DNA of 64,000 bases from Spirulina sp. (GTDB lineage: Bacteria; Cyanobacteriota; Cyanobacteriia; Phormidesmidales; Phormidesmidaceae). The stretch lies in contig JBIPSI010000023.1 of assembly GCA_044070495.1 (NCBI GenBank), forward strand, positions 1-64,000. Reading direction: 5' to 3'. Positions 26,238 through 55,784 of this stretch are shown piece after piece. The notes below the pieces were generated by a model that was not told where the DNA came from, made no database searches, and saw nothing but the letters and a program-made list of their open reading frames with translations. A program made the translations under genes and the position numbers. Numbering within the stretch: position 1 is the stretch's first letter; each line of letters opens with the position of its first letter.

Positions 26238-26319
26238 GCGGATGTGGCGGAATTGGTAGACGCGCTAGATTTAGGTTCTAGTTTCGCAAGAAGTGAAGGT
26301 TCAAGTCCTTTCATCCGCA
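26238..26319 (+). tRNA. trnL: tRNA-Leu (anticodon TAG)
   Basis: Acceptor stem GCGGATG/CATCCGC, D-loop GGAATTGGTAGAC, anticodon arm CTAGA-TTTAGGT-TCTAG, long variable arm, GGTTCAAGTCC; CCA not encoded. Confidence 0.96.
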
Positions 26320-47584: not shown

Positions 47585-50185
47585 GTGAACCCTAATCCTG
47601 CTTCTCCGACCTTAGGTCTCCCCGTGCCCCAGTGGACCAGTGACCATCAGGGAGTGTACCTAGAACTGACCGAAACCCAGAAGTTGATGGAATGGGCCGA
47701 GGCCGTAGGTCACACAGACGACACCATTTTTCACCAGGGGCAAACCTATGCCCGCCGACTGGGGGCACACTATCGAGAGGATGGGCTAACGGAATTTGGC
47801 TTTTGGACACCGGAACTAGCCGCCGAGGTGATTCAGTCGGAGCGTACCCTGGAGTTGGAAATCCTAACGCCGCTCCAGCCGATTGATTTTCGGGCCGATC
47901 AGCAAACCATAGACTTTAAGCGGGAGCGCATCCCGGTGATGCAGCAGGGGGAATACGTGTGGGCCGTGGTGGCGGGGCTAACACCGGGCACCCGTGATCA
48001 GGCCGGATGCTTCTACTGGCTGCGCTACGTCGATCCCGAAGGGCGGGAGCACCCGATTCGTGACCCTCTAGCCTACTCCCTGCCCTACGGCGTGTTTGCC
48101 CCAGCAGAACTCTACGATATGGATCGTCTCCAGCGGGAACGGGCCGATCTCGCCTACCTGCAAAGCACCGCCGCCCGTGGGGAGGATGGGGAAATTCCCC
48201 GCCTGCCACCCCCCACCAACATTCTGCAGATCCACGTGAAGACCTCCAGCCCAGAGGGTTCCGTGGAGGGCTTAACCCGCATCTACCGCACCATTTCCGA
48301 CAAACTGGCCAAGGGAGAGGCCCTAACGGCGGCAGAGACGGCCTACGTGGGCTATGAGGCTGTGCAACTGTTGCCCGTAGAACCCACCATTGAATATCGG
48401 CGGGAGGACACCAACCTCGACCACGAATTTTTTGCCGTCGTGGGCCTTGGCTATCCAGAAAAGTCCCCGCTCGAAGATGCCATTGAAGACGCCCTTGAAA
48501 GTGCCATTGAGGCCACCGCTGAGGATGCTGCCGAGGAAGACACCGAACCCATCACCCTCACCGTGACCCTACGCCAGCCCAATACCCAAAACTGGGGCTA
48601 CGATGTGCCGATTTTGGGTTCCGCCGCCACCAACCCCGCCGTGCTTGGCAGCCTGCGCCCCGATGAAATGGTGGATTTAATCGCCACCCTGCACAATTTT
48701 TCCCAGGGGCCGATTCAGGTGATTTACGACCTCGTCTATGGCCACGCCGACAACCAGGCCCTAGAACTGTTGCCCCAGCAGTTTTTCAAAGGGCCGAATA
48801 TGTACGGCCAAGACCTTAACCACCAACTGCCTCAGGTGCGCGCCATTTTGCTAGAGATGCAGCGGCGCAAGCTCAACACTGGGGTGGATGGTATTCGGGT
48901 CGATGGCGGGCAAGATTTTCGCTTCTTTAACCCTCTCAGCGGGCGGGTGGAACACGACGACATGTACCTGATTGCCATGAGCGACGTGGTGCAGGACATT
49001 GAAGGCCATCAGCGGCTGATGTTCACCATTTTTGAGGACGGGCGACCCTGGCCGGAGGAGGGCTGGGAGGAAAAATCCACCTACCGCGAACTGATGGAGG
49101 CCAAGCCCGGATCCTTCCAGTGGGGGCCGCTGATTTTTGCCCACAATACCCCCACCCTAAAGGGCTTTTGGGATTACAAATGGCAGCGGGTTTGCGAAGT
49201 CATCACCCAGGGCGACCACTGGATTACCGGCTGCGGCAACCACGATACCGTACGACGCGGCAACCAAATTGACCCCAGCGCCGACATCAACTGGAACCTG
49301 GGCGACACCCTGCCCAGCGCCCTAAACCGGGCCTACAACAATCCGGCCACATTGCTCTGGGTGCATGGCTTCAGTCCTGGGTTGCCCATGGATTTCCTCA
49401 ACGCCTGCCTGGAAACGCCCTGGGGGTTTTTCCGCAATACCGACGACCGCTACGGCGTCAAGGTTGTGGCCGAAGAGGTGGGCTTTTTAGACTGGGAAAT
49501 TGAGCCAGACTTCTACGCCCGACCCGACACCTTCCCCCAACTCAAAGCCCTGGGGTTTGAGAGCCTGCCATCGCTGCAAGACTTCGCCAAGGCTCTACAA
49601 ACCGCCATGGTAGAAACCGACTACGACCTAGAGGCCGTCGCCCAAATTTGTCAGGGTTGCCTCGGTCAGGGGGCCGATGGTCAAACCTGCACCGTCCCGG
49701 CCCTGGGGGATATCAACCAGCCCGGACTACCGGATTTTCTGATGAACTTAGACGTGCCACGCCTAAAGCAGTTTGCCATGGCCTTTATGGAGGATGGCCA
49801 CGATAGCTGCAACGTGGTGCATTCCGCCGACCAGGTTGATCCAGAACGAGCCGTCTTTGCCCTTGCCCTACGACAGTTTCGGCAGGAGCGGCCCTGGCTG
49901 CGGCAAAACCTCAGCGGCAGCGACCGTTTCAACCGCATCAGCGAACCCACCCACACCCTGTTCTACGGCCACCGCACCCAACCCACGGGCGAAGACGCGG
50001 TAGTGATGATCACCCACATGGGTGGCGACCCCGTCACCGTCACCCTGGGCGACTGGCTTCAGCTTGACCTCAGCGAATGGCAGGTGGCCCTCGCGACCCC
50101 CGGCCTCGTCCCCGATTCTCTCCAGCAATTTGAGATCCAGGATGGCCAAGGCCTGCTGCTTATCCCCCGACCGATGGAGGGCTAA
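47585..50185 (+). CDS. gghA: Glucosylglycerol hydrolase (GH13-like)
   Basis: RLGAHY..DG.TE.GFW, DP.A.SLPYGVFAPAE, DLVYGHADNQ, DGIRVDG, NHDT; start uncertain. Confidence 0.8.
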   Translation: MNPNPASPTLGLPVPQWTSDHQGVYLELTETQKLMEWAEAVGHTDDTIFHQGQTYARRLGAHYREDGLTEFGFWTPELAAEVIQSERTLELEILTPLQPIDFRADQQTIDFKRERIPVMQQGEYVWAVVAGLTPGTRDQAGCFYWLRYVDPEGREHPIRDPLAYSLPYGVFAPAELYDMDRLQRERADLAYLQSTAARGEDGEIPRLPPPTNILQIHVKTSSPEGSVEGLTRIYRTISDKLAKGEALTAAETAYVGYEAVQLLPVEPTIEYRREDTNLDHEFFAVVGLGYPEKSPLEDAIEDALESAIEATAEDAAEEDTEPITLTVTLRQPNTQNWGYDVPILGSAATNPAVLGSLRPDEMVDLIATLHNFSQGPIQVIYDLVYGHADNQALELLPQQFFKGPNMYGQDLNHQLPQVRAILLEMQRRKLNTGVDGIRVDGGQDFRFFNPLSGRVEHDDMYLIAMSDVVQDIEGHQRLMFTIFEDGRPWPEEGWEEKSTYRELMEAKPGSFQWGPLIFAHNTPTLKGFWDYKWQRVCEVITQGDHWITGCGNHDTVRRGNQIDPSADINWNLGDTLPSALNRAYNNPATLLWVHGFSPGLPMDFLNACLETPWGFFRNTDDRYGVKVVAEEVGFLDWEIEPDFYARPDTFPQLKALGFESLPSLQDFAKALQTAMVETDYDLEAVAQICQGCLGQGADGQTCTVPALGDINQPGLPDFLMNLDVPRLKQFAMAFMEDGHDSCNVVHSADQVDPERAVFALALRQFRQERPWLRQNLSGSDRFNRISEPTHTLFYGHRTQPTGEDAVVMITHMGGDPVTVTLGDWLQLDLSEWQVALATPGLVPDSLQQFEIQDGQGLLLIPRPMEG

Positions 50186-51207
50186 TAGCGAATGCGGGGG
50201 TCGATGTAGGCGTTTAGAATATCAATGGCGATGCTGATCACCGCCACAATCATGCCGAAGAACACCATTAACCCCTGCACCACCGGATAATCCCGCTGGG
50301 AGATGGCTTCATAGAGGCGATTGGCCAAGCCGGGCCAGGAGAAGGTGACTTCGGTCAGCACCGCACCGCCCAGCATGGAGGCAAAGGTCAGCCCTAGGAT
50401 GGTAATCACCGGAATTAGGGCATTTTTGAGGGCATGAACTAGGACAATCCGCCGCTCTGGGATGCCCCTGGCGCGGGCCGCTTCCACATAGTCTGCCGTG
50501 AGGGTTTGCTTGAGGTTGACCCGCACCATACGCTCAAACACACCGCTAATCAGCACCCCCAGGGTGAGGCTGGGCAGGGCTAGGTAATAGATTGTGGTGG
50601 CAAAAGCCCCTAAATCAAAGGTGAGCAGGCTATCCAGCAGATACAATCCCGTGGGGCCAGCGGGCGGCGTACCCTGGAGGGGATAGCGGGTGCCGATGGG
50701 AAACCAGCGCAACTGCACCGCAAAAATAAGCTGCAAAATCATGCCAAACCAATACATCGGAATGGCGTAGGTGATGATGCCAAACAGCCGCCCCCCGGCA
50801 TCGAGGGCCGAGTTGGGCCGCGAGGCGGAAATTACCCCCACCGTTACCCCCACCACCGTGGCCACAATCATGCCGCACAGGGCCAGTTCCACCGTGGCCG
50901 GAAAGTGGGCGCGAATGATGGCCCACACCGTTTGCCCCTGGGTGGCGATGGAAGTACCCAAATCAAACCGCAGCAGTTGGCCCAGGTAGTCGATATATTG
51001 CGCCCACAGGGGTTGATCCAGCCCCAACTGTGCCCGTAGCTGATCCTTCGCCGCCGCCGGAGCCCGCGCCCCCAGCAGGGCATCCACCGGATCGCCGGGG
51101 GTGGCCCGCAGCAGCAAAAACACCACCGTGGTAATCGTCCAGATCATCAACGGGGCTAGCATCAGTCGGGTGAGGACGTAGTAGCGCAGGGCGGCAGAGC
51201 GGGACAT
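50182..51207 (-). CDS. Peptide/nickel ABC transporter permease (DppB type)
   Basis: PGDP, LGLDQP, EAARARG EAA loop, RDYPVVQG. Confidence 0.92.
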   Translation of the reverse strand: MSRSAALRYYVLTRLMLAPLMIWTITTVVFLLLRATPGDPVDALLGARAPAAAKDQLRAQLGLDQPLWAQYIDYLGQLLRFDLGTSIATQGQTVWAIIRAHFPATVELALCGMIVATVVGVTVGVISASRPNSALDAGGRLFGIITYAIPMYWFGMILQLIFAVQLRWFPIGTRYPLQGTPPAGPTGLYLLDSLLTFDLGAFATTIYYLALPSLTLGVLISGVFERMVRVNLKQTLTADYVEAARARGIPERRIVLVHALKNALIPVITILGLTFASMLGGAVLTEVTFSWPGLANRLYEAISQRDYPVVQGLMVFFGMIVAVISIAIDILNAYIDPRIRY

Positions 51208-51213
51208 GGGGGT

Positions 51214-51243
51214 GGGTTATTGGTTATTGGTTATTGGTTATTG
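51214..51243. repeat. Heptamer short tandem repeat (TTATTGG)n, STRR-like
   Basis: GGTTATTGGTTATTGGTTATTGGTTATTG; a reverse-complement version occurs at 53611-53647. Confidence 0.7.
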
Positions 51244-51583
51244 CGCCGCTGGTGATGAGGGTTTCTAGTTTGGCGGCGAGGTCTTCCTTGGCGGCAACCC
51301 CTTCAATGGTGGCGACGCGCGCGCCTTTGTTGAAGAAGATCAGGGTGGGGATGGCCATCACATGGTACTGAAGGGCCAGGGCGTCTTCTTCATCGACGTT
51401 GAGCTTGGCCACCTTGGCTCGGCCCGCAAAGGTTTCCGCCAGTTCTTCCACAATCGGGTTCATGATGCGGCAGGGGCCACACCAGGCTGCCCAAAAATCA
51501 ACCAGAACCGGAACATCGCTCTGAAGCACTTCGGCGTCAAAGTTGTCCGCCGTGATCGTGAGGTACTGGGCATGGTCTGCCAT
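51224..51583 (-). CDS. trxA: Thioredoxin
   Basis: VDFWAAWCGPC, IPTL. Confidence 0.95.
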   Translation of the reverse strand: MADHAQYLTITADNFDAEVLQSDVPVLVDFWAAWCGPCRIMNPIVEELAETFAGRAKVAKLNVDEEDALALQYHVMAIPTLIFFNKGARVATIEGVAAKEDLAAKLETLITSGAITNNQ

Positions 51584-51685
51584 GGGGAAATCTCTCCTTG
51601 AGGATGCTGGGGGGAATGTCCCTTGGGTCGTCTTCTACAGTACTGCATTCTTGGCCCGCCCAAAACGGGAGCCTGATGGGTGGGT

Positions 51686-52063
51686 TTAAACGCGCACCAT
51701 AGGATCCGGTTGGCACTGTTTTAGGGTCAAGAGTTGCCGCTCTAGGGACTCTTCCAACCCTGTGACTAGCAGAATGCCGTGATCGCTGGTGGGGCTATCG
51801 GCGATCCAGGTGCCGGGGAGGGTAATTTCCAGCCAATCGGCATCGCACACCGTGATCGCCAACCCCAGGCGGCGAGCTGTTTTCACTAGGGACTCTACCC
51901 CTGCGTTCTGGGCAGGAAAGGGGAGCGATCCATGGCTGGCCTGCATCCAGAGCGGTTGTCCAGAACGCAGGGCCACTAAGCTCCGCTGGGCCACCACCGC
52001 CTCCACGGGCTGAGTGACTCCTTCAACAAACGGTTCAACATCGGAATAGGTAATTTTCAACAT
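51686..52063 (-). CDS. alr0857 family protein
   Basis: MLKITY start, QR..VALRSGQ.L, CDADWLEITL.GTWI..G pattern recognised from memory of the family. Confidence 0.7.
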   Translation of the reverse strand: MLKITYSDVEPFVEGVTQPVEAVVAQRSLVALRSGQPLWMQASHGSLPFPAQNAGVESLVKTARRLGLAITVCDADWLEITLPGTWIADSPTSDHGILLVTGLEESLERQLLTLKQCQPDPMVRV

Positions 52064-52254
52064 GATCGGTCATGCCTAGGGCAAAAGTAAGGGCAAAAGA
52101 AGGACAAAAACGGCGCAGATCGGGCCAAGGTCGAAGGGGCCGAAAACCCACTCGCTGCGCCAAAAAGGTTGAGCTAAAGAATTGAGCAAAAAGGGATTGG
52201 GCAAACTTGGGCAAGGTTGAGCAAGGTTGAGCGATTCAAGCTCGACCCCAGATC

Positions 52255-52382
52255 GATCCACGCAGCCATGGATTCACGCAGCCATGGATCCACGCAGCCA
52301 TGGATTCACGCAGCCACCGATCCATGGGGACATCGATTAACACAGACATCGATCCACACAGGCATCGATCCACGAAGCCCCC
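52255..52382. repeat. Tandem array, 8 x 16 nt (consensus GATYCACRCAGVCATS)
   Basis: Exact 16-nt periodicity, no spacers; first four units nearly identical. Confidence 0.95.
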
Positions 52383-52644
52383 GTAAACGCCTGTCGTCCA
52401 AGGTTGAGTGAACGGGATATTAGGCCCAAGGGACACGGATCCGACGGGGACAAACTTCCCAGAGTGGCCGTTCCCGCTGGTGGGTCTCGCGATCCTTTCG
52501 TTGACCTAGCGGTGCCCTGCCATCGAAGACCAGAACACCCCGCCGAACGTCAACCGAGGCATAAACTGGCATAGTGCCCAAGCACGTCATGGCGATCCAG
52601 CCGCCCCCGTTGACTATCCAGGAGCCTTGAGGTTGCGTCGATCT

Positions 52645-52839
52645 GAGATCGATGCCCTAGGGTCTGAACCCTTAGGGCCTGAACCATTGGGGATCGAAGG
52701 CCCAAAAATTGGACGTTTAGGGATCGAATGCCTAGGGATTGAAGTCCCAGAAATTGAACCTTTATGGATCGAACGCCTAGGGATTGAAGTCCCAGGGATT
52801 GAGCCTTTAGGGATCGCAGTCCTAGGAATTGAACCTTTA
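52645..52839 (-). repeat. Tandem array, 13 x 15 nt, T-loop-like units
   Basis: Minus-strand units such as TAAAGGTTCAATTCC, TGGGACTTCAATCCC, TAGGCGTTCGATCCA; partial 45-nt super-period. Confidence 0.95.
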
Positions 52840-53171
52840 GCCAAACCTTGAGAAATGCTCCGCCAGAAATGCCCAGGCGTGCCCCTAGGTCAGCCCGTTT
52901 AATCACCATGGGGCTAATCGTAGGAATCATCGTGGGGCCTGTAATTCGGAGATCTGCCACCCTAGCCAACTGGCGCAGACCATCCCGCAGTAGGGCGATG
53001 GCGATTGTAGCGAAGCCAGTGAACCAGGTACCTTTCACAGCAGAACTCCTTCAGCCCAGGGCCGTTGAGGAAATACGTGCACGGTGTCTCATTAGAACGC
53101 GCCTAGGCGACTCTGTCTAGTGGCGTTCCTAGTGACTTTCGTTAGCACTGTAGATTTACCGAATTATGTCA

Positions 53172-53200
53172 ATACTACACGCGTAATACAAAAGTGTCTA
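53172..53200 (-). promoter_or_regulatory. Sigma70-type promoter overlapped by a TrcR-type operator
   Basis: Minus strand TAGACA (53200-53195), 17-nt spacer, TAGTAT (53177-53172); plus strand ATACTACACGCGTAATAC (53172-53189) resembles the Anabaena TrcR box as I recall it. Confidence 0.7.
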
Positions 53201-53262
53201 GACTATAAATGTTCTGGAAATGTTCTGTTTATTGTGTTCTCGCCATGGAGGTGTGCTCCCCG

Positions 53263-53616
53263 ATGCCAACCCTAACTCGCGTTTCAACCTCTGATATGGA
53301 AGTCACCAGCATTCGCCTAGAGCGCTCGCTGAAGGAAAAGCTCAAGGCGATGGCAGGCGACCGGGGCTATCAGGCGTTGATTCGCGACATCCTCTGGCAA
53401 TACGTAGAACACACCCCCGCCGCCCAAGTGGCTTCGTTACAACCCGAAGACATCTACGCCAGCTTTGCCGCTGTCTCCACCCACCCCCAAATCTGCGCCC
53501 TCACCGGAACCGCCATCCAACCCCAGGAATCCATTCACCTAGGACTAACGGCCCAGGGCACCCTCGTTCCCCTCAGCCTGCCCGCCGCCGCCACCCTAGG
53601 CAACCCGCCCCAATAA
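53263..53616 (+). CDS. trcR: Ribbon-helix-helix repressor, TrcR (All0854)-like
   Basis: MEVTSIRLE..LKEKLK....GYQALIRDILW.YV RHH segment, C-terminal C.LTG..I.P; GGAGG upstream; divergent from an alr0857 homologue. Confidence 0.75.
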   Translation: MPTLTRVSTSDMEVTSIRLERSLKEKLKAMAGDRGYQALIRDILWQYVEHTPAAQVASLQPEDIYASFAAVSTHPQICALTGTAIQPQESIHLGLTAQGTLVPLSLPAAATLGNPPQ

Positions 53617-53647
53617 CCAGTAACCAATAACCAGCAACCAATAACCA
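53611..53647. repeat. Heptamer short tandem repeat (CCARTAA)n
   Basis: CAATAACCAGTAACCAATAACCAGCAACCAATAACCA. Confidence 0.7.
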
Positions 53648-53774
53648 CCCCCCAAAACCCTTTAGCTTTTCTAAAGAACCCCCGGTGCCGCCCCATCCCT
53701 TTTTAAGATGATTATCCCCAGGTTAAAAACGAGGTTACCTCCCTGGGTAATGCCGTGAGATGAGGAACGGGCCG

Positions 53775-55784
53775 ATGTGTGGGATTGGCGGTGTGATGTA
53801 TGCGGATCCAAACCATCCTGTAGATCCAAAGATCTTAGTGGGGATGGCCGCCATTCAGTACCACCGAGGCCCGGATGGCTTTGGCTACGACATCGTGCCG
53901 GATCGAGGGGTGGGGTTTGCCCATGCGCGGCTGTCGATTATTGACCTAGACCCAGAGCGGGGGCGGCAACCCTTTCGATCCGCCGATGGCCAGTTTTTGA
54001 TTGCCCACAACGGCGAATTTTACGACTACAAACGCCTGCGGGCCGACCTCACCTCGCGGGGCTACCGCTTTCGCACCAAAAGCGACACGGAACTGCTGCT
54101 GCACCTCACCGACCGCTTTGGCCTAGAGGGTGCCCTGCCCCACCTGCGGGGGGAGTTTGCCTTTGCGGTCTACGAACGACAAGCGGATCGGCTGAGCCTG
54201 GTGCGAGATCGGTTTGGGGTGAAGCCGTTGTATTGGTGCCTGACGCCGGAGGGGTTGGTGTTTGGCTCGGAGATTAAGGTGGTGCTGGCCCATCCGGCGG
54301 TGAAGGCGCGGTTTGCGGCGGCGGGGCTGTATCACCAGTTGATGCAGACCATGGTTCCTGGCACCACGGCCTTTGAGGGCATCTATGCGGTGGAACCGGG
54401 GCAGCGGGTGATCGTACAGCGGCGGCAGGGGAAACTGGAGGTACGCACCGAATCCTACTGGGATTTGAACTTTCCGCTGATGGGTACCCGCCCCCAGCGC
54501 AGCGACGAAGACTGCATCGAAGAACTACGCCAGCGCTTTGTGGAGGCCATCCAACTGCGCCTAGAGGCCGATGTGCCCGTGGCCTGCTACCTGTCGGGGG
54601 GGATTGATTCCTGCTCGATTTTGGGCATCGCCGCCGCCTGTCAGCAGGCTCCGGTCAAAGCCTTCACCATCGGCTTCGACGACAGCGACTACGACGAAAC
54701 CGCCATCGCCCAGGAAATGGCCGCCGCCGTGGGGGCCGACCAAGACATTCTGCGGGTGGATGGTACCCAGCTTTATGACCACTTTGCCCGTACCCTCTGG
54801 CACACCGAACGCAGCATCTACAACACCTTCACCGTAGCCAAGTTGCTGATGAGCGAGCATGTGCATCGGGCGGGCTACAAGGTGGTGGTCACCGGAGAGG
54901 GGTCGGACGAACTGTTTGCGGGCTACCCCCAACTGCGGCTGGATATGATTCGCCACGGCATGGCCCAGGCCAGCGAGGCCGAGCGGGCCGATTTAGAATC
55001 CTGGCTAGCGGAAAGCAACAAGCTGTTTAAAGGCAACCTGCTAGCCGAAACGCCCCTAGAGGATGCCGCCCTCACCGAGGTGGTGGGGTTCACCCCCAGT
55101 TGTCTGCAATCTTGGCTGGGGTCGGCCCACTATGCCGAAACCCTGATCCATCCCGATTATCGTCAACCCCTGAAAGACTACGCCCCCGGTGCCGCCATTG
55201 CCGCCACCCTGCGGGCCGACCAACTGCAAGATCGCCACCCCCTCGACAAGGCCCAATACGTGTGGATTAAGACCCAGTTTGAATCCCAGGTGTTGGGCTG
55301 GGCCGGAGACCGGGTGGATATGGCCAATTCCATGGAGGCGCGTCCCGCCTTTTTGGATCATCCCCTGGTGGAGTTTGCCGTGACCCTGCCGCCCAACCTG
55401 CGCCTGCGGGGCCACCAAGACAAATACATCCTGCGGGAAACCATGCGGGATCTCCTACCCGAAACCCTCTACAAACGCCAGAAATTTGCCTTCATGGCTC
55501 CCCCCTCCCACACCGACCAGGTGAAACAGCGGGCCATGCAAACTCTGGCCGATCAGTACCTCAGCCCGGAGGCGGTGGGTAAGGCCGGACTGCTTGACCA
55601 CGCCGCCGTGCAGGGCGTCCTACAGCAACACCGCACCGAAACTACCCCCGTCGCCGAACGGGTGCAGCTCGATGCGGTAATTAACCACATGCTGAGCGTG
55701 CAGATTCTCCACCAGCACTTTGTCGCCCAGGATATCCCAGCGGTGGCCCAAGCCCAGGCCCAGCGGTTGGGCTGGCAACCCTAG
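53775..55784 (+). CDS. asnB: Asparagine synthase (glutamine-hydrolysing) family amidotransferase
   Basis: N-terminal MCGI, HRGPD, NGE, SDTE, LSGGIDS, GEGSDE. Confidence 0.93.
   Translation: MCGIGGVMYADPNHPVDPKILVGMAAIQYHRGPDGFGYDIVPDRGVGFAHARLSIIDLDPERGRQPFRSADGQFLIAHNGEFYDYKRLRADLTSRGYRFRTKSDTELLLHLTDRFGLEGALPHLRGEFAFAVYERQADRLSLVRDRFGVKPLYWCLTPEGLVFGSEIKVVLAHPAVKARFAAAGLYHQLMQTMVPGTTAFEGIYAVEPGQRVIVQRRQGKLEVRTESYWDLNFPLMGTRPQRSDEDCIEELRQRFVEAIQLRLEADVPVACYLSGGIDSCSILGIAAACQQAPVKAFTIGFDDSDYDETAIAQEMAAAVGADQDILRVDGTQLYDHFARTLWHTERSIYNTFTVAKLLMSEHVHRAGYKVVVTGEGSDELFAGYPQLRLDMIRHGMAQASEAERADLESWLAESNKLFKGNLLAETPLEDAALTEVVGFTPSCLQSWLGSAHYAETLIHPDYRQPLKDYAPGAAIAATLRADQLQDRHPLDKAQYVWIKTQFESQVLGWAGDRVDMANSMEARPAFLDHPLVEFAVTLPPNLRLRGHQDKYILRETMRDLLPETLYKRQKFAFMAPPSHTDQVKQRAMQTLADQYLSPEAVGKAGLLDHAAVQGVLQQHRTETTPVAERVQLDAVINHMLSVQILHQHFVAQDIPAVAQAQAQRLGWQP

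Follow-up and report, generated by a model that had tools for sequence, protein, structure and literature searches.

A TrcR-alr0857 locus of Spirulina sp. and the probable origin of its repeat-rich leader

The stretch of DNA analysed here comprises 64,000 nt from Spirulina sp. (contig JBIPSI010000023.1 of assembly GCA_044070495.1, positions 1 to 64,000; hereafter the window) and the locus under study occupies its positions 51686-53616. This locus contains a gene for a ribbon-helix-helix (RHH) repressor and, on the opposite strand, a divergent promoter followed by a long leader and a gene of the alr0857 family. A similar locus, that of the regulator TrcR (all0854), is known from Anabaena sp. 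PCC 7120 (Wang et al., 2023; PMC10272220). An earlier reading of the window from its letters alone (the sequence-only reading) had taken the locus to be of the TrcR type and had proposed that its leader carries repeat arrays instead of tRNAs, and that it gives rise to a stress-induced, long structured RNA replacing a tRNA array or derived from one. Our results indicate that the locus is a TrcR-alr0857 unit of the published kind, and it is probably an orthologous TrcR autoregulatory locus of a Nodosilinea-like filamentous cyanobacterium; its fast-evolving leader has probably been lengthened by tandem repeats of the slippage type, and the genome as a whole is rich in repeats. The family membership, the conservation of the operator and promoter, the synteny, the lack of tRNAs, the variability of the repeats and the lack of excess folding were all computed in this work. 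The binding of TrcR, the extent of the transcript, its induction by stress and the translation of its first open reading frame (ORF) are predictions.

Regulator, operator and partner gene

The search for proteins related to the RHH repressor recovered 867 homologues at E<=1e-3 (among 881 candidates), and the best named ones are from Nodosilinea and related cyanobacteria of the Leptolyngbya group. In an alignment of 28 TrcR homologues the sequence MEVTSIRLE..LKE.LK...GYQALIR was invariant or nearly so, and this alignment also moves the start of the gene, which the list of ORFs gives as 53209..53616, to position 53263. The gene is present in a single copy in the source genome, which is a draft of 5.31 Mb in 74 contigs. 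Homologues of TrcR in phages are named in PMC10272220; none was detected at E<=1e-5 by tblastn among 50,697 phage records.

For comparative purposes, 80 related loci were collected by means of a TrcR alignment, and the best operator site within 300 nt upstream of trcR was recorded for each of them. In Anabaena, the TrcR motif ATACTACACTTGTATTAC lies in a footprint from -53 to -28 (PMC10272220), and the operator has been described as two 9-nt direct repeats over the -10 element and the start site (PMC8421152). The putative operator in the window matches this footprinted motif at 15/18 bases (3 mismatches), it reads on the minus strand as two direct repeats, TGTATTACG cg TGTAGTATT, and when the genome was searched for sites with 0-2 mismatches to the pattern, no other was found. 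It is located 74-91 nt before the start codon of trcR. A box with no more than three mismatches to the published 18-mer was present upstream of trcR in 68/80 loci, and 28 of the 80 have an exact match, mostly ~50 nt before the trcR start. Two other boxes of this type, which were obtained with loose direct-repeat patterns (C11:98918 and C42:23266), were rejected; their neighbours have no clear link to a regulon and one of the two sites apparently lies inside a coding sequence.

The leftward sigma-70-type promoter, from which a transcript starting near 53165 is predicted, has the form TAGACA-N17-TAGTAT, and from the positions of the box (53172-53189) and of the promoter (53200-53172) its -10 hexamer therefore lies within the operator. 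By itself the promoter scan was not above chance (2 sites versus 1.2 +/- 1.1 in shuffles). However, TAGACA, the box and TAGTAT were invariant in a DNA alignment of the interval from 18 congeneric sequences, and when the 1199-nt interval was searched against the DNA of 30 relatives, the segment 53160-53205 was the only part of it that was found, in 10 of the 18 congeneric genomes, with one further weak match outside the genus. The placement of an RHH gene on the plus strand, divergent from a promoter that is overlapped by the box, is thus as the sequence-only reading had described it. Between the leftward -35 element and the trcR start there is also an exact 11-nt direct repeat, AAATGTTCTGG (1.9 copies, 53207-53227), which is not found at the corresponding place in the aligned congeners.

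The gene at the other end of the locus was likewise correctly named in that reading. Its product was matched by the equivalog model NF045647 of NCBIfam over positions 1-118 of the 121 in the model, with a score of 92.2 bits (E 2.4e-26) where the cut-off is 75, and in a search of the source genome it was found to be single copy (91.5 bits). The label PF28246 is a precomputed one for this protein; the Pfam scan made here, which did not include that model, gave no match. A homologue of alr0857 is located upstream of trcR, on the opposite strand, in 64/80 loci, and on plasmids a single record was found (Kovacikia, 34% identity). In the window the next gene after it encodes a thioredoxin. In Anabaena, the divergent genes asr0855, alr0856 (an HNH endonuclease) and alr0857 are 7- to 9-fold up in a trcR mutant (PMC10272220, Table 1), and they are given there as neighbours possibly sharing an operon. 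In the literature that was searched, one or other of these three genes is named in three papers, none of which appears to be a study of them. An AlphaFold (AF2) model of the alr0857-family protein, based upon a 60-row alignment, had a mean predicted local distance difference test (pLDDT) value of 91.5 and a predicted template modelling score of 0.80. A Foldseek search of the PDB with this model returned nothing at E<=1e-3, the best VIA-align match (Z 5.3) was to a generic ferredoxin-like alpha/beta half, and a feature match to AAA (0.86) was below the threshold for a lead. For this cyanobacteria-wide protein, which is predicted to be controlled by TrcR, no informative fold match was thus obtained. 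The membership of the regulator in its family, the operator, the partner gene identified by NCBIfam and the synteny together identify the locus, therefore, as a TrcR-alr0857 unit of the published kind, and the TrcR-type assignment of the earlier reading is upheld.

Contents of the trcR-alr0857 interval and the location of tRNA arrays

The DNA between trcR and the alr0857 homologue could be compared in 65 intervals (64 loci and the window), whose lengths range from 255 to 1587 nt. In nearly all of them a small first ORF is present right behind the operator. A gene for an HNH endonuclease was found in 32/65 intervals, nearly full length in 30 and partial in two; all six of the tested interval ORFs of 172-180 aa matched PF14279/PF01844, and a 182-aa ORF in the interval of locus L049 gave no match in the same domain test. 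The remaining 33 intervals have no HNH gene, so that its absence in the window is a common state, and it is also lacking in all of the 12 loci nearest to the window (L002-L013). No remnant of an HNH gene was detected in the window interval by tblastn at E<=10. Elsewhere in the source genome an HNH gene is present (C16:18631-19056) that is 42-47% identical to alr0856-type genes of other TrcR loci; by eye, no clear TrcR box is seen in the 300 nt upstream of it. Among the 33 intervals without an HNH gene that of the window is the longest (1199 nt, the next being 1044 nt). Its repeats, as summed from the repeat lists, total ~440 nt, and when these are subtracted its length falls in the 819-979 nt range of most congeners; the repeats thus account for its excess length.

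In contrast to the proposal that repeat arrays stand here in the place of tRNAs, a survey of these intervals revealed no tRNA gene in any of the 65. In the whole window ARAGORN found a sole tRNA gene, tRNA-Leu at 26238, and, in agreement with the earlier failure to see a cloverleaf, none in the interval. At relaxed thresholds the interval gave no call with -ps90 and three overlapping calls with -ps80, which is within the range of the controls (shuffles, mean 0.63, max 3; random pieces of the window, mean 1.33, max 3), and Rfam gave no match at E<=1 for positions 51000-54500. The source genome has 36 tRNA genes, of which never more than two are adjacent. One further ARAGORN call in this genome (C19:87986-88077) is a 92-nt 'tRNA-???' with a two-base anticodon, which may be an intron-containing or aberrant tRNA.

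The statement of the sequence-only reading that other cyanobacteria often have tRNA arrays in this place was found to be partly right for the neighbourhood but not for the position. Arrays of 15-26 tRNA genes are present near trcR, on the operon strand, in 5/80 loci (Table 1), and in these they lie 1.3-1.6 kb beyond the end of alr0857. Clusters of three tRNA genes were found in loci L023 and L037 at 0.46 and 1.46 kb beyond alr0857, respectively. In L069 and L072, a polysaccharide-deacetylase gene of opposed orientation lies between alr0857 and the tRNA array, and each array is preceded by a direct-repeat box of its own (TGTAGTA type), which reads TGTAGTATTTTTGTAGTA or differs slightly from it; L037 also has a separate box of this kind. 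The separate boxes in L069 and L072 fit with the work on Anabaena, where the trn operon and the neighbouring HNH gene have separate mapped promoters (PMC8421152). The survey thus maps the contents of the trcR-alr0857 interval in 64 cyanobacterial loci, viz. a first ORF, which in half of the loci is joined by an HNH gene, but in no case a tRNA. The tRNA arrays that adjoin trcR appear as separate operator-controlled units, which provides background for studies of stress sensing by TrcR.

Table 1. Positions of the features of the locus in the window and, where a locus label (L) is given, of features in the comparison loci
Feature	Position	Strand	Remark
trcR orthologue, 117 aa RHH repressor	53263..53616 (with stop codon)	+	start MPTLTRVSTSDMEVTSIRL, from alignment of 28 homologues
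Putative TrcR operator, ATACTACACGCGTAATAC (+ strand reading)	53172-53189		15/18 bases of Anabaena motif
Divergent sigma-70-type promoter (predicted): -35 TAGACA 53200-53195, 17-nt spacer, -10 TAGTAT 53177-53172	53172..53200	-	scan, 9/12 matches
Predicted 5' untranslated region, ~127 nt	53039..53165	-	hairpin core 53095-53128; GAAGGAG 53052-53046
Orphan first ORF, 162 codons, GTG start at 53038	52550..53038	-	positional equivalent of asr0855
15-nt tandem array, 9 or more units (also 30- and 45-nt periods)	52633-52832; Tandem Repeats Finder 52690-52840		inside first ORF
Spacer, 486 nt, first ORF to alr0857-family gene	52064..52549	-	no supported ORF
16-nt tandem array, 8 units, unit GATCCACGCAGCCATG	52236-52395; Tandem Repeats Finder core 52252-52379		in spacer
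Degenerate CAAGGTTGAGCNA / TTGAGCAAGG repeats, 3 copies	52164-52234		fourth copy at 52399
12-nt repeat AGGGCAAAAGTA, 2.8 copies	52078-52109		just upstream of alr0857-family start
alr0857-family gene, 125 aa	51686..52063	-	NCBIfam NF045647
Long tRNA array	L069:2596-5316	-	beyond alr0857 homologue
Long tRNA array	L072:2703-5043	-	beyond alr0857 homologue
Long tRNA array	L074:3703-5534	-	beyond alr0857 homologue
Long tRNA array	L076:2491-5011	-	beyond alr0857 homologue
Long tRNA array	L047:3034-5191	-	beyond alr0857 homologue
GCGGGAGG-hairpin element	L019:7655-7735, L044:7633-7713, L069:7655-7735	- (L019)	same place in 38 loci besides L019

Tandem repeats, the first ORF and the leader RNA

The 15-nt, 16-nt and degenerate repeats that had been described for the leader are all present, together with a 12-nt repeat (Table 1). 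Tandem arrays were identified with Tandem Repeats Finder (TRF), merged, and retained at a score of at least 50. The 15-nt array reads as a repeat of five residues (LGLQS, LGVRS etc.), and the length of the 16-nt unit is not a multiple of three. A relative of the source organism (X3, from a DNA run), which is ~90% identical, was colinear with the window over the whole stretch. Compared with the window, it is without 30 nt (two units) at 52752 in the 15-nt array, without 10 nt (one unit) at 52211 in the degenerate repeats and without 11 nt at 52094 in the 12-nt repeat, and in the 16-nt array 157 other letters replace positions 52324-52441. The two organisms thus differ just at the arrays, and the deletions amount to one unit, to two, or nearly to one. 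Arrays with a period of at least 7 nt were observed in 11/65 intervals, the largest being those of the window; hence, they are not a conserved property of the leader.

The genome in which these repeats are found is itself rich in them, with 900 TRF arrays in 5.31 Mb; of the periods found, 15 (149 arrays) and 16 (67 arrays) rank among the most frequent. It contains 73 short-unit arrays of at least 100 nt, and 26 in which units of 10-20 nt are present in six or more copies. No other copies of seven segments from the interval were found in the genome, so that the repeats of the interval are not a dispersed element. The repeats are most likely slippage-type local expansions in a fast-changing stretch, and not tRNA relics or structured RNA. 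Repeats of other kinds were also noted. Heptamers of the type CCAATAA / CCAGTAA follow the trcR stop codon (53610-53647) and the complementary TTATTGG is found after the thioredoxin gene (51218-51242), so that the locus is flanked by them on both sides; elsewhere in the genome such heptamers form arrays of up to ~20 units (e.g. C11:155727, C43:4 and C57:6726). TRF rows with a period of 74-77 nt at C20:31352-33131 and C16:73354-73779 have fixed cores of 36-37 nt and look like CRISPR (clustered regularly interspaced short palindromic repeats). The region C1:148290-152269, with a period of ~290 nt, shares these 36-37-nt cores, and it may be a CRISPR array or a repeat of longer period with a CRISPR-like core.

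The ORF which the sequence-only reading had placed behind a Shine-Dalgarno (SD) sequence is likewise present, with GAAGGAG located 7 nt before the GTG codon. In the alignment of the 18 congeneric sequences two blocks are conserved, viz. the promoter with its operator, and the ribosome-binding site with the start codon of the first ORF (window, AAGGAGTTCTGCTGTGAAAGG; L002, AAGGAGTCCTGCTGTGAAACG; core congeners, GAGGAACTCCGCTATG). Beyond its start the ORF in the window has few relatives. The only ones found are P0128 and P0129 (147 and 152 aa), which have 75-76% identity with it and differ from it by in-frame repeat number, and an exhaustive phmmer search with the 67-aa N-terminus recovered one representative among 1.84 billion, viz. 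the cluster of P0128/P0129. In a search of Pfam no family, including pentapeptide repeats, was matched by it at E<=0.1, and two scans of metagenome contigs yielded no DNA of close relatives from which a ratio of nonsynonymous to synonymous change could be estimated.

The first ORFs of the congeners form a family of their own, with the sequence MLRILSTGTAxxIAxTTGDAGQLGMVAGFDG at the beginning, a variable middle part with a periodicity of five residues, and then SQHSVFQH. These are 77-147 codons long, depending on the start, and they are open in all 17 non-redundant sequences despite many indels. In their first 33 codons, 17, 12 and 16 columns are variable at the three codon positions, i.e. without an excess of change at the third. 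The ORF in the window could not be placed in this family. With a hidden Markov model (HMM) built from the 17 sequences it scored 3.1 bits and came eighth among the 473 window ORFs, the Smith-Waterman score of 34 for the N-terminal similarity was reached by 523/2000 shuffles, and the scores for the C-terminal similarity were reached by 467, 1170 and 628 of 2000. Resemblances that had been seen by eye (MK..TG.AT.IA; LSIQR) are therefore at the level of chance.

The codon score of the first ORF in the window is 0.04 bits/codon, versus 0.34-0.54 for the neighbouring genes, and in the congeners it ranges from -0.02 to 0.22, versus 0.28-0.61 for alr0857. Its N-terminal part has a score of 0.13 bits/codon, where real genes have a mean of 0.445 (standard deviation 0.22) and the 95th percentile of non-coding frames is 0.018. 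The share of rare codons is 0.105, as against a genome mean of 0.037. The AF2 model, which is weak evidence as its alignment had just three rows, showed no fold (mean pLDDT 38.5; 28-42 over the repeat, without strands). As the 15-nt unit is open in several frames, the lack of stop codons within the array carries no weight; what really speaks for translation, as far as sequence goes, is that 101 codons outside the repeat are in the same frame and that the start is conserved. On balance, the chance that this ORF is translated is about even or slightly better, and it is unlikely that a folded protein results.

In relation to the proposed structured RNA, the 5' hairpin at 53095-53128 was present in both the minimum free energy and the centroid folds, but it was no more stable than those of shuffled sequences. 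Compared with dinucleotide shuffles, no part of the leader folds better than expected (z = -0.40 for the 5' untranslated region (UTR), +0.45 for the region of the first ORF and -0.38 for the spacer), and much of the leader consists of the SD-led ORF; the leader as a long structured non-coding RNA is thus not sustained. In the congeners, a different long hairpin is found at the same place in the 5' UTR, with an outer stem GAGCGTATCC / GGATGCCCTC and weak covariation, and the 5' UTR sequence between the two conserved blocks differs between them and the window. The spacer contains no HNH remnant and, by scanning, no promoter-like or terminator-like site on the minus strand, and only its last ~20 nt (AGGCATGAnnGATC before ATG) align with the congeners. 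In the core congeners a spacer of ~300 nt is kept in long DNA blocks, e.g. ccaggggttcgcatcggtattcacccacgg and gggccgctgccgcctcgacacagc (L004:7092-7420, and the same place in L005-L009, L011 and L084-L092), none of which is shared by the spacer of the window; it could be a genus-specific RNA or regulatory region.

In other TrcR loci, the asr0855-like first ORF was noted to have a separate conserved element at its 3' end. It consists of A-GCGGGAGG, a 7-bp hairpin TACAG(N8-14)CTGTA closed by GG/CC, and then NATATA(A/G)GAC.AGAAAAC, and the stop codon of the ORF lies within the conserved tail; what looks like a conserved C-terminus of this ORF (SGRYR..AVPI) is, in fact, the element at the nucleotide level. 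In 35 sequences, 90.2% of its stem is paired, and compensatory changes are few. A covariance model built here (R1) detected it in 39/80 other loci (35 of these being its training rows), once per locus and on the operon strand. In the class, 27/151 genomes contained it (one copy in 26 and two in one). It was not detected in nine genomes of the family of the source organism nor in its own genome, and with filters off the best score in window positions 50000-55000 was 3.4 bits (E 2.1), outside the interval. The element in L019 has no match in Rfam. Possibly it is a leader element of RNA (or DNA) in the TrcR regulon that has so far gone undescribed.

Proposed working of the locus, competing explanations and known systems

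Based upon these observations the locus may be envisaged to work as follows. TrcR, when bound to the two direct repeats, would cover the spacer and the -10 hexamer of the leftward promoter and keep both directions off. When translation elongation is impaired, its level would fall, as it does in Anabaena under chloramphenicol (PMC10272220), and the leftward promoter would fire. The resulting mRNA would contain the 5' UTR with its hairpin, the SD-led first ORF, the spacer and the alr0857-family gene, and the 1.2-kb interval would be the counterpart of the asr0855 stretch (with or without the HNH gene alr0856) of other cyanobacteria. In this genus the HNH gene is missing, and the interval evolves very fast, the exceptions being the promoter/operator and the place where the first ORF has its ribosome-binding site and start; the four kinds of repeats are found in the least constrained parts, viz. 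the middle of the first ORF and the spacer. Induction of the leftward unit by stress is plausible in view of the operator.

In relation to expression, no run with RNA of the source organism was found, and none of the RNA runs contained more than 0.09 of the sequence words. In two metatranscriptome libraries from different studies, contigs matched parts of the stretch at ~90-97% identity (X14, 52774-53058 and 52168-52401; X22, 52949-53074), and 53153-53599 is also matched by metatranscriptome contigs of relatives; from the parts without such cover nothing can be concluded. These provide a weak hint that the interval is transcribed.

A number of points weigh against the reading that we favour. 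The Pfam match of the regulator to RHH_1 is weak (E 0.021; 15.2 bits versus a cut-off of 20.5; residues 33-66 of the long ORF), the protein has been assigned to the TrcR family from sequence comparisons other than one with All0854 itself, and binding at 53172-53189 is predicted from just the 15/18 match. The metatranscriptome contigs are from relatives and may include DNA carry-over, and neither strand, ends, level nor induction can be read from them; co-transcription of alr0857 and the leader, as opposed to transcription from a separate alr0857 promoter, is likewise a prediction. Further, the 162 open codons, the consensus SD sequence and the start context shared with congeners hint that translation is selected, so that the array inside the first ORF may be non-neutral. 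Lastly, two long short-unit arrays within 1.2 kb were found in only four places of the genome, and the local repeat density is thus on the high side, but not unique.

An alternative suggestion is that the first ORF is a cis-acting leader ORF, of which the translation matters rather than the product. The passage of ribosomes along a long, repeat-built and poorly adapted coding run would signal elongation stress and would determine how stable the alr0857 mRNA is or how it is expressed downstream, the 15-nt array being a selected lengthening of the sensor. It has in its favour that the interval has just two parts in common with the congeners, the SD sequence and start being one of them, that a first ORF has stayed open in all 17 congeneric sequences despite its indel-rich middle, and that the lack of a third-position excess of change (17/12/16) means little constraint on the protein. 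Further, the codon scores are low, rare codons are abundant and the AF2 model has no fold. However, low codon adaptation and lack of protein constraint are equally typical of non-coding sequence, the openness of the repeat unit in several frames deprives the array of value as evidence, and the translation itself is only predicted. Moreover, no terminator- or attenuator-like site was found on the operon strand between the ORF and alr0857, and the derepression in Anabaena is explained by the loss of TrcR without a leader mechanism (PMC10272220). We consider this suggestion quite unlikely. Its extension to cyanobacteria in general is more doubtful still: the first product of the TrcR-controlled promoter would be a translated, sequence-unconstrained leader ORF acting as a cis gauge of elongation, which in most lineages may end in the conserved GCGGGAGG-hairpin and which in this genus may have a conserved SD/start and a middle of five-residue periodicity. 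If it were true, the 15-nt array would have stretched the ORF to 162 poorly adapted codons and the number of repeats would tune the response of alr0857 to the slowing of ribosomes, adding to TrcR a second, post-transcriptional layer of the translational-stress response.

An unlikely arrangement, though one that the long and unconserved spacer (486 nt) would permit, is that of two units, with the TrcR promoter making a short transcript (5' UTR and first ORF) and alr0857 being transcribed from its own unrecognised promoter in the spacer. In that case the 16-nt and TTGAGCAA repeats would not be transcribed, or would be DNA close to the promoter, and they might be sites to which proteins bind; the distance of the CAAGGTTGAGC repeats from the alr0857 start is 100-170 nt on its upstream side, and cyanobacterial promoters often escape a scan for the sigma-70 consensus. 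The lack of any promoter-like site in the spacer or terminator-like site on the minus strand in that scan, the difference in repeat copy number in the close relative X3 and the joint rise of asr0855, alr0856 and alr0857 in the Anabaena trcR mutant (PMC10272220, Table 1) argue against it. The proposal of a stress-induced structured non-coding RNA that replaces a tRNA array, or is the remnant of one, is very improbable. The operator and promoter on which it was built are real, tRNA arrays do occur near trcR on the alr0857 strand in five of the 80 loci, and TrcR represses the trn array in Anabaena (PMC10272220). However, these arrays lie beyond alr0857, in L069 and L072 behind an opposed gene and with a box of their own, and no interval contains a tRNA. 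The relaxed ARAGORN calls and the Rfam search gave no indication of one in the window, the folding is not in excess and 489 nt of the leader are an SD-led ORF, and the repeat units of 15, 16, 10 and 12 nt are unrelated to tRNA in length or sequence and vary in copy number in X3. The orthologous TrcR locus with a repeat-swollen leader thus remains the reading that we favour; by it, the locus is an ordinary part of the TrcR translational-stress regulon, and the explanation in terms of tRNAs, though attractive, is wrong. By itself the finding opens no new question.

Among known sequences, the repeats of the leader may be compared with the short tandemly repeated (STRR) sequences of cyanobacterial genomes, which are dispersed families of heptamers. 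Like these, they are short-unit tandem arrays in poorly constrained DNA, of which there are many per genome (900 here), and their copy number varies between close relatives. They differ from them in their units, which are of 15, 16, 10 and 12 nt and are unique to the locus, and in that one of the arrays in the window lies inside an ORF.

The long tRNA arrays (L-arrays) of cyanobacteria, of which the trn operon of Anabaena is an example (Santamaria-Gomez et al., 2021; PMC8421152), are related to the locus by the same class of regulator, by an operator of two direct repeats at the -10 element and by the fact that they adjoin the trcR-alr0857 unit in some loci (5/80). In contrast to them, neither ARAGORN nor Rfam found a tRNA gene or tRNA-like fold in the interval of the window; the draft genome has no such array anywhere, and where arrays are present they are separate units beyond alr0857.

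The closest counterpart is the trcR locus of Anabaena PCC 7120, with which the window shares a repressor gene of the same RHH family, an operator of the same 18-bp class (15/18 bases) and a divergent unit that ends in an alr0857-family gene and has a small first ORF behind an operator-controlled promoter. In the window, however, the interval is without the HNH gene that corresponds to alr0856 and without the GCGGGAGG-hairpin element of 39/80 other loci, and no similarity to the others could be detected for its orphan first ORF. Further, its operator is located 74-91 nt before the trcR start rather than ~28-53 nt, and ~440 nt of tandem repeats have been added.

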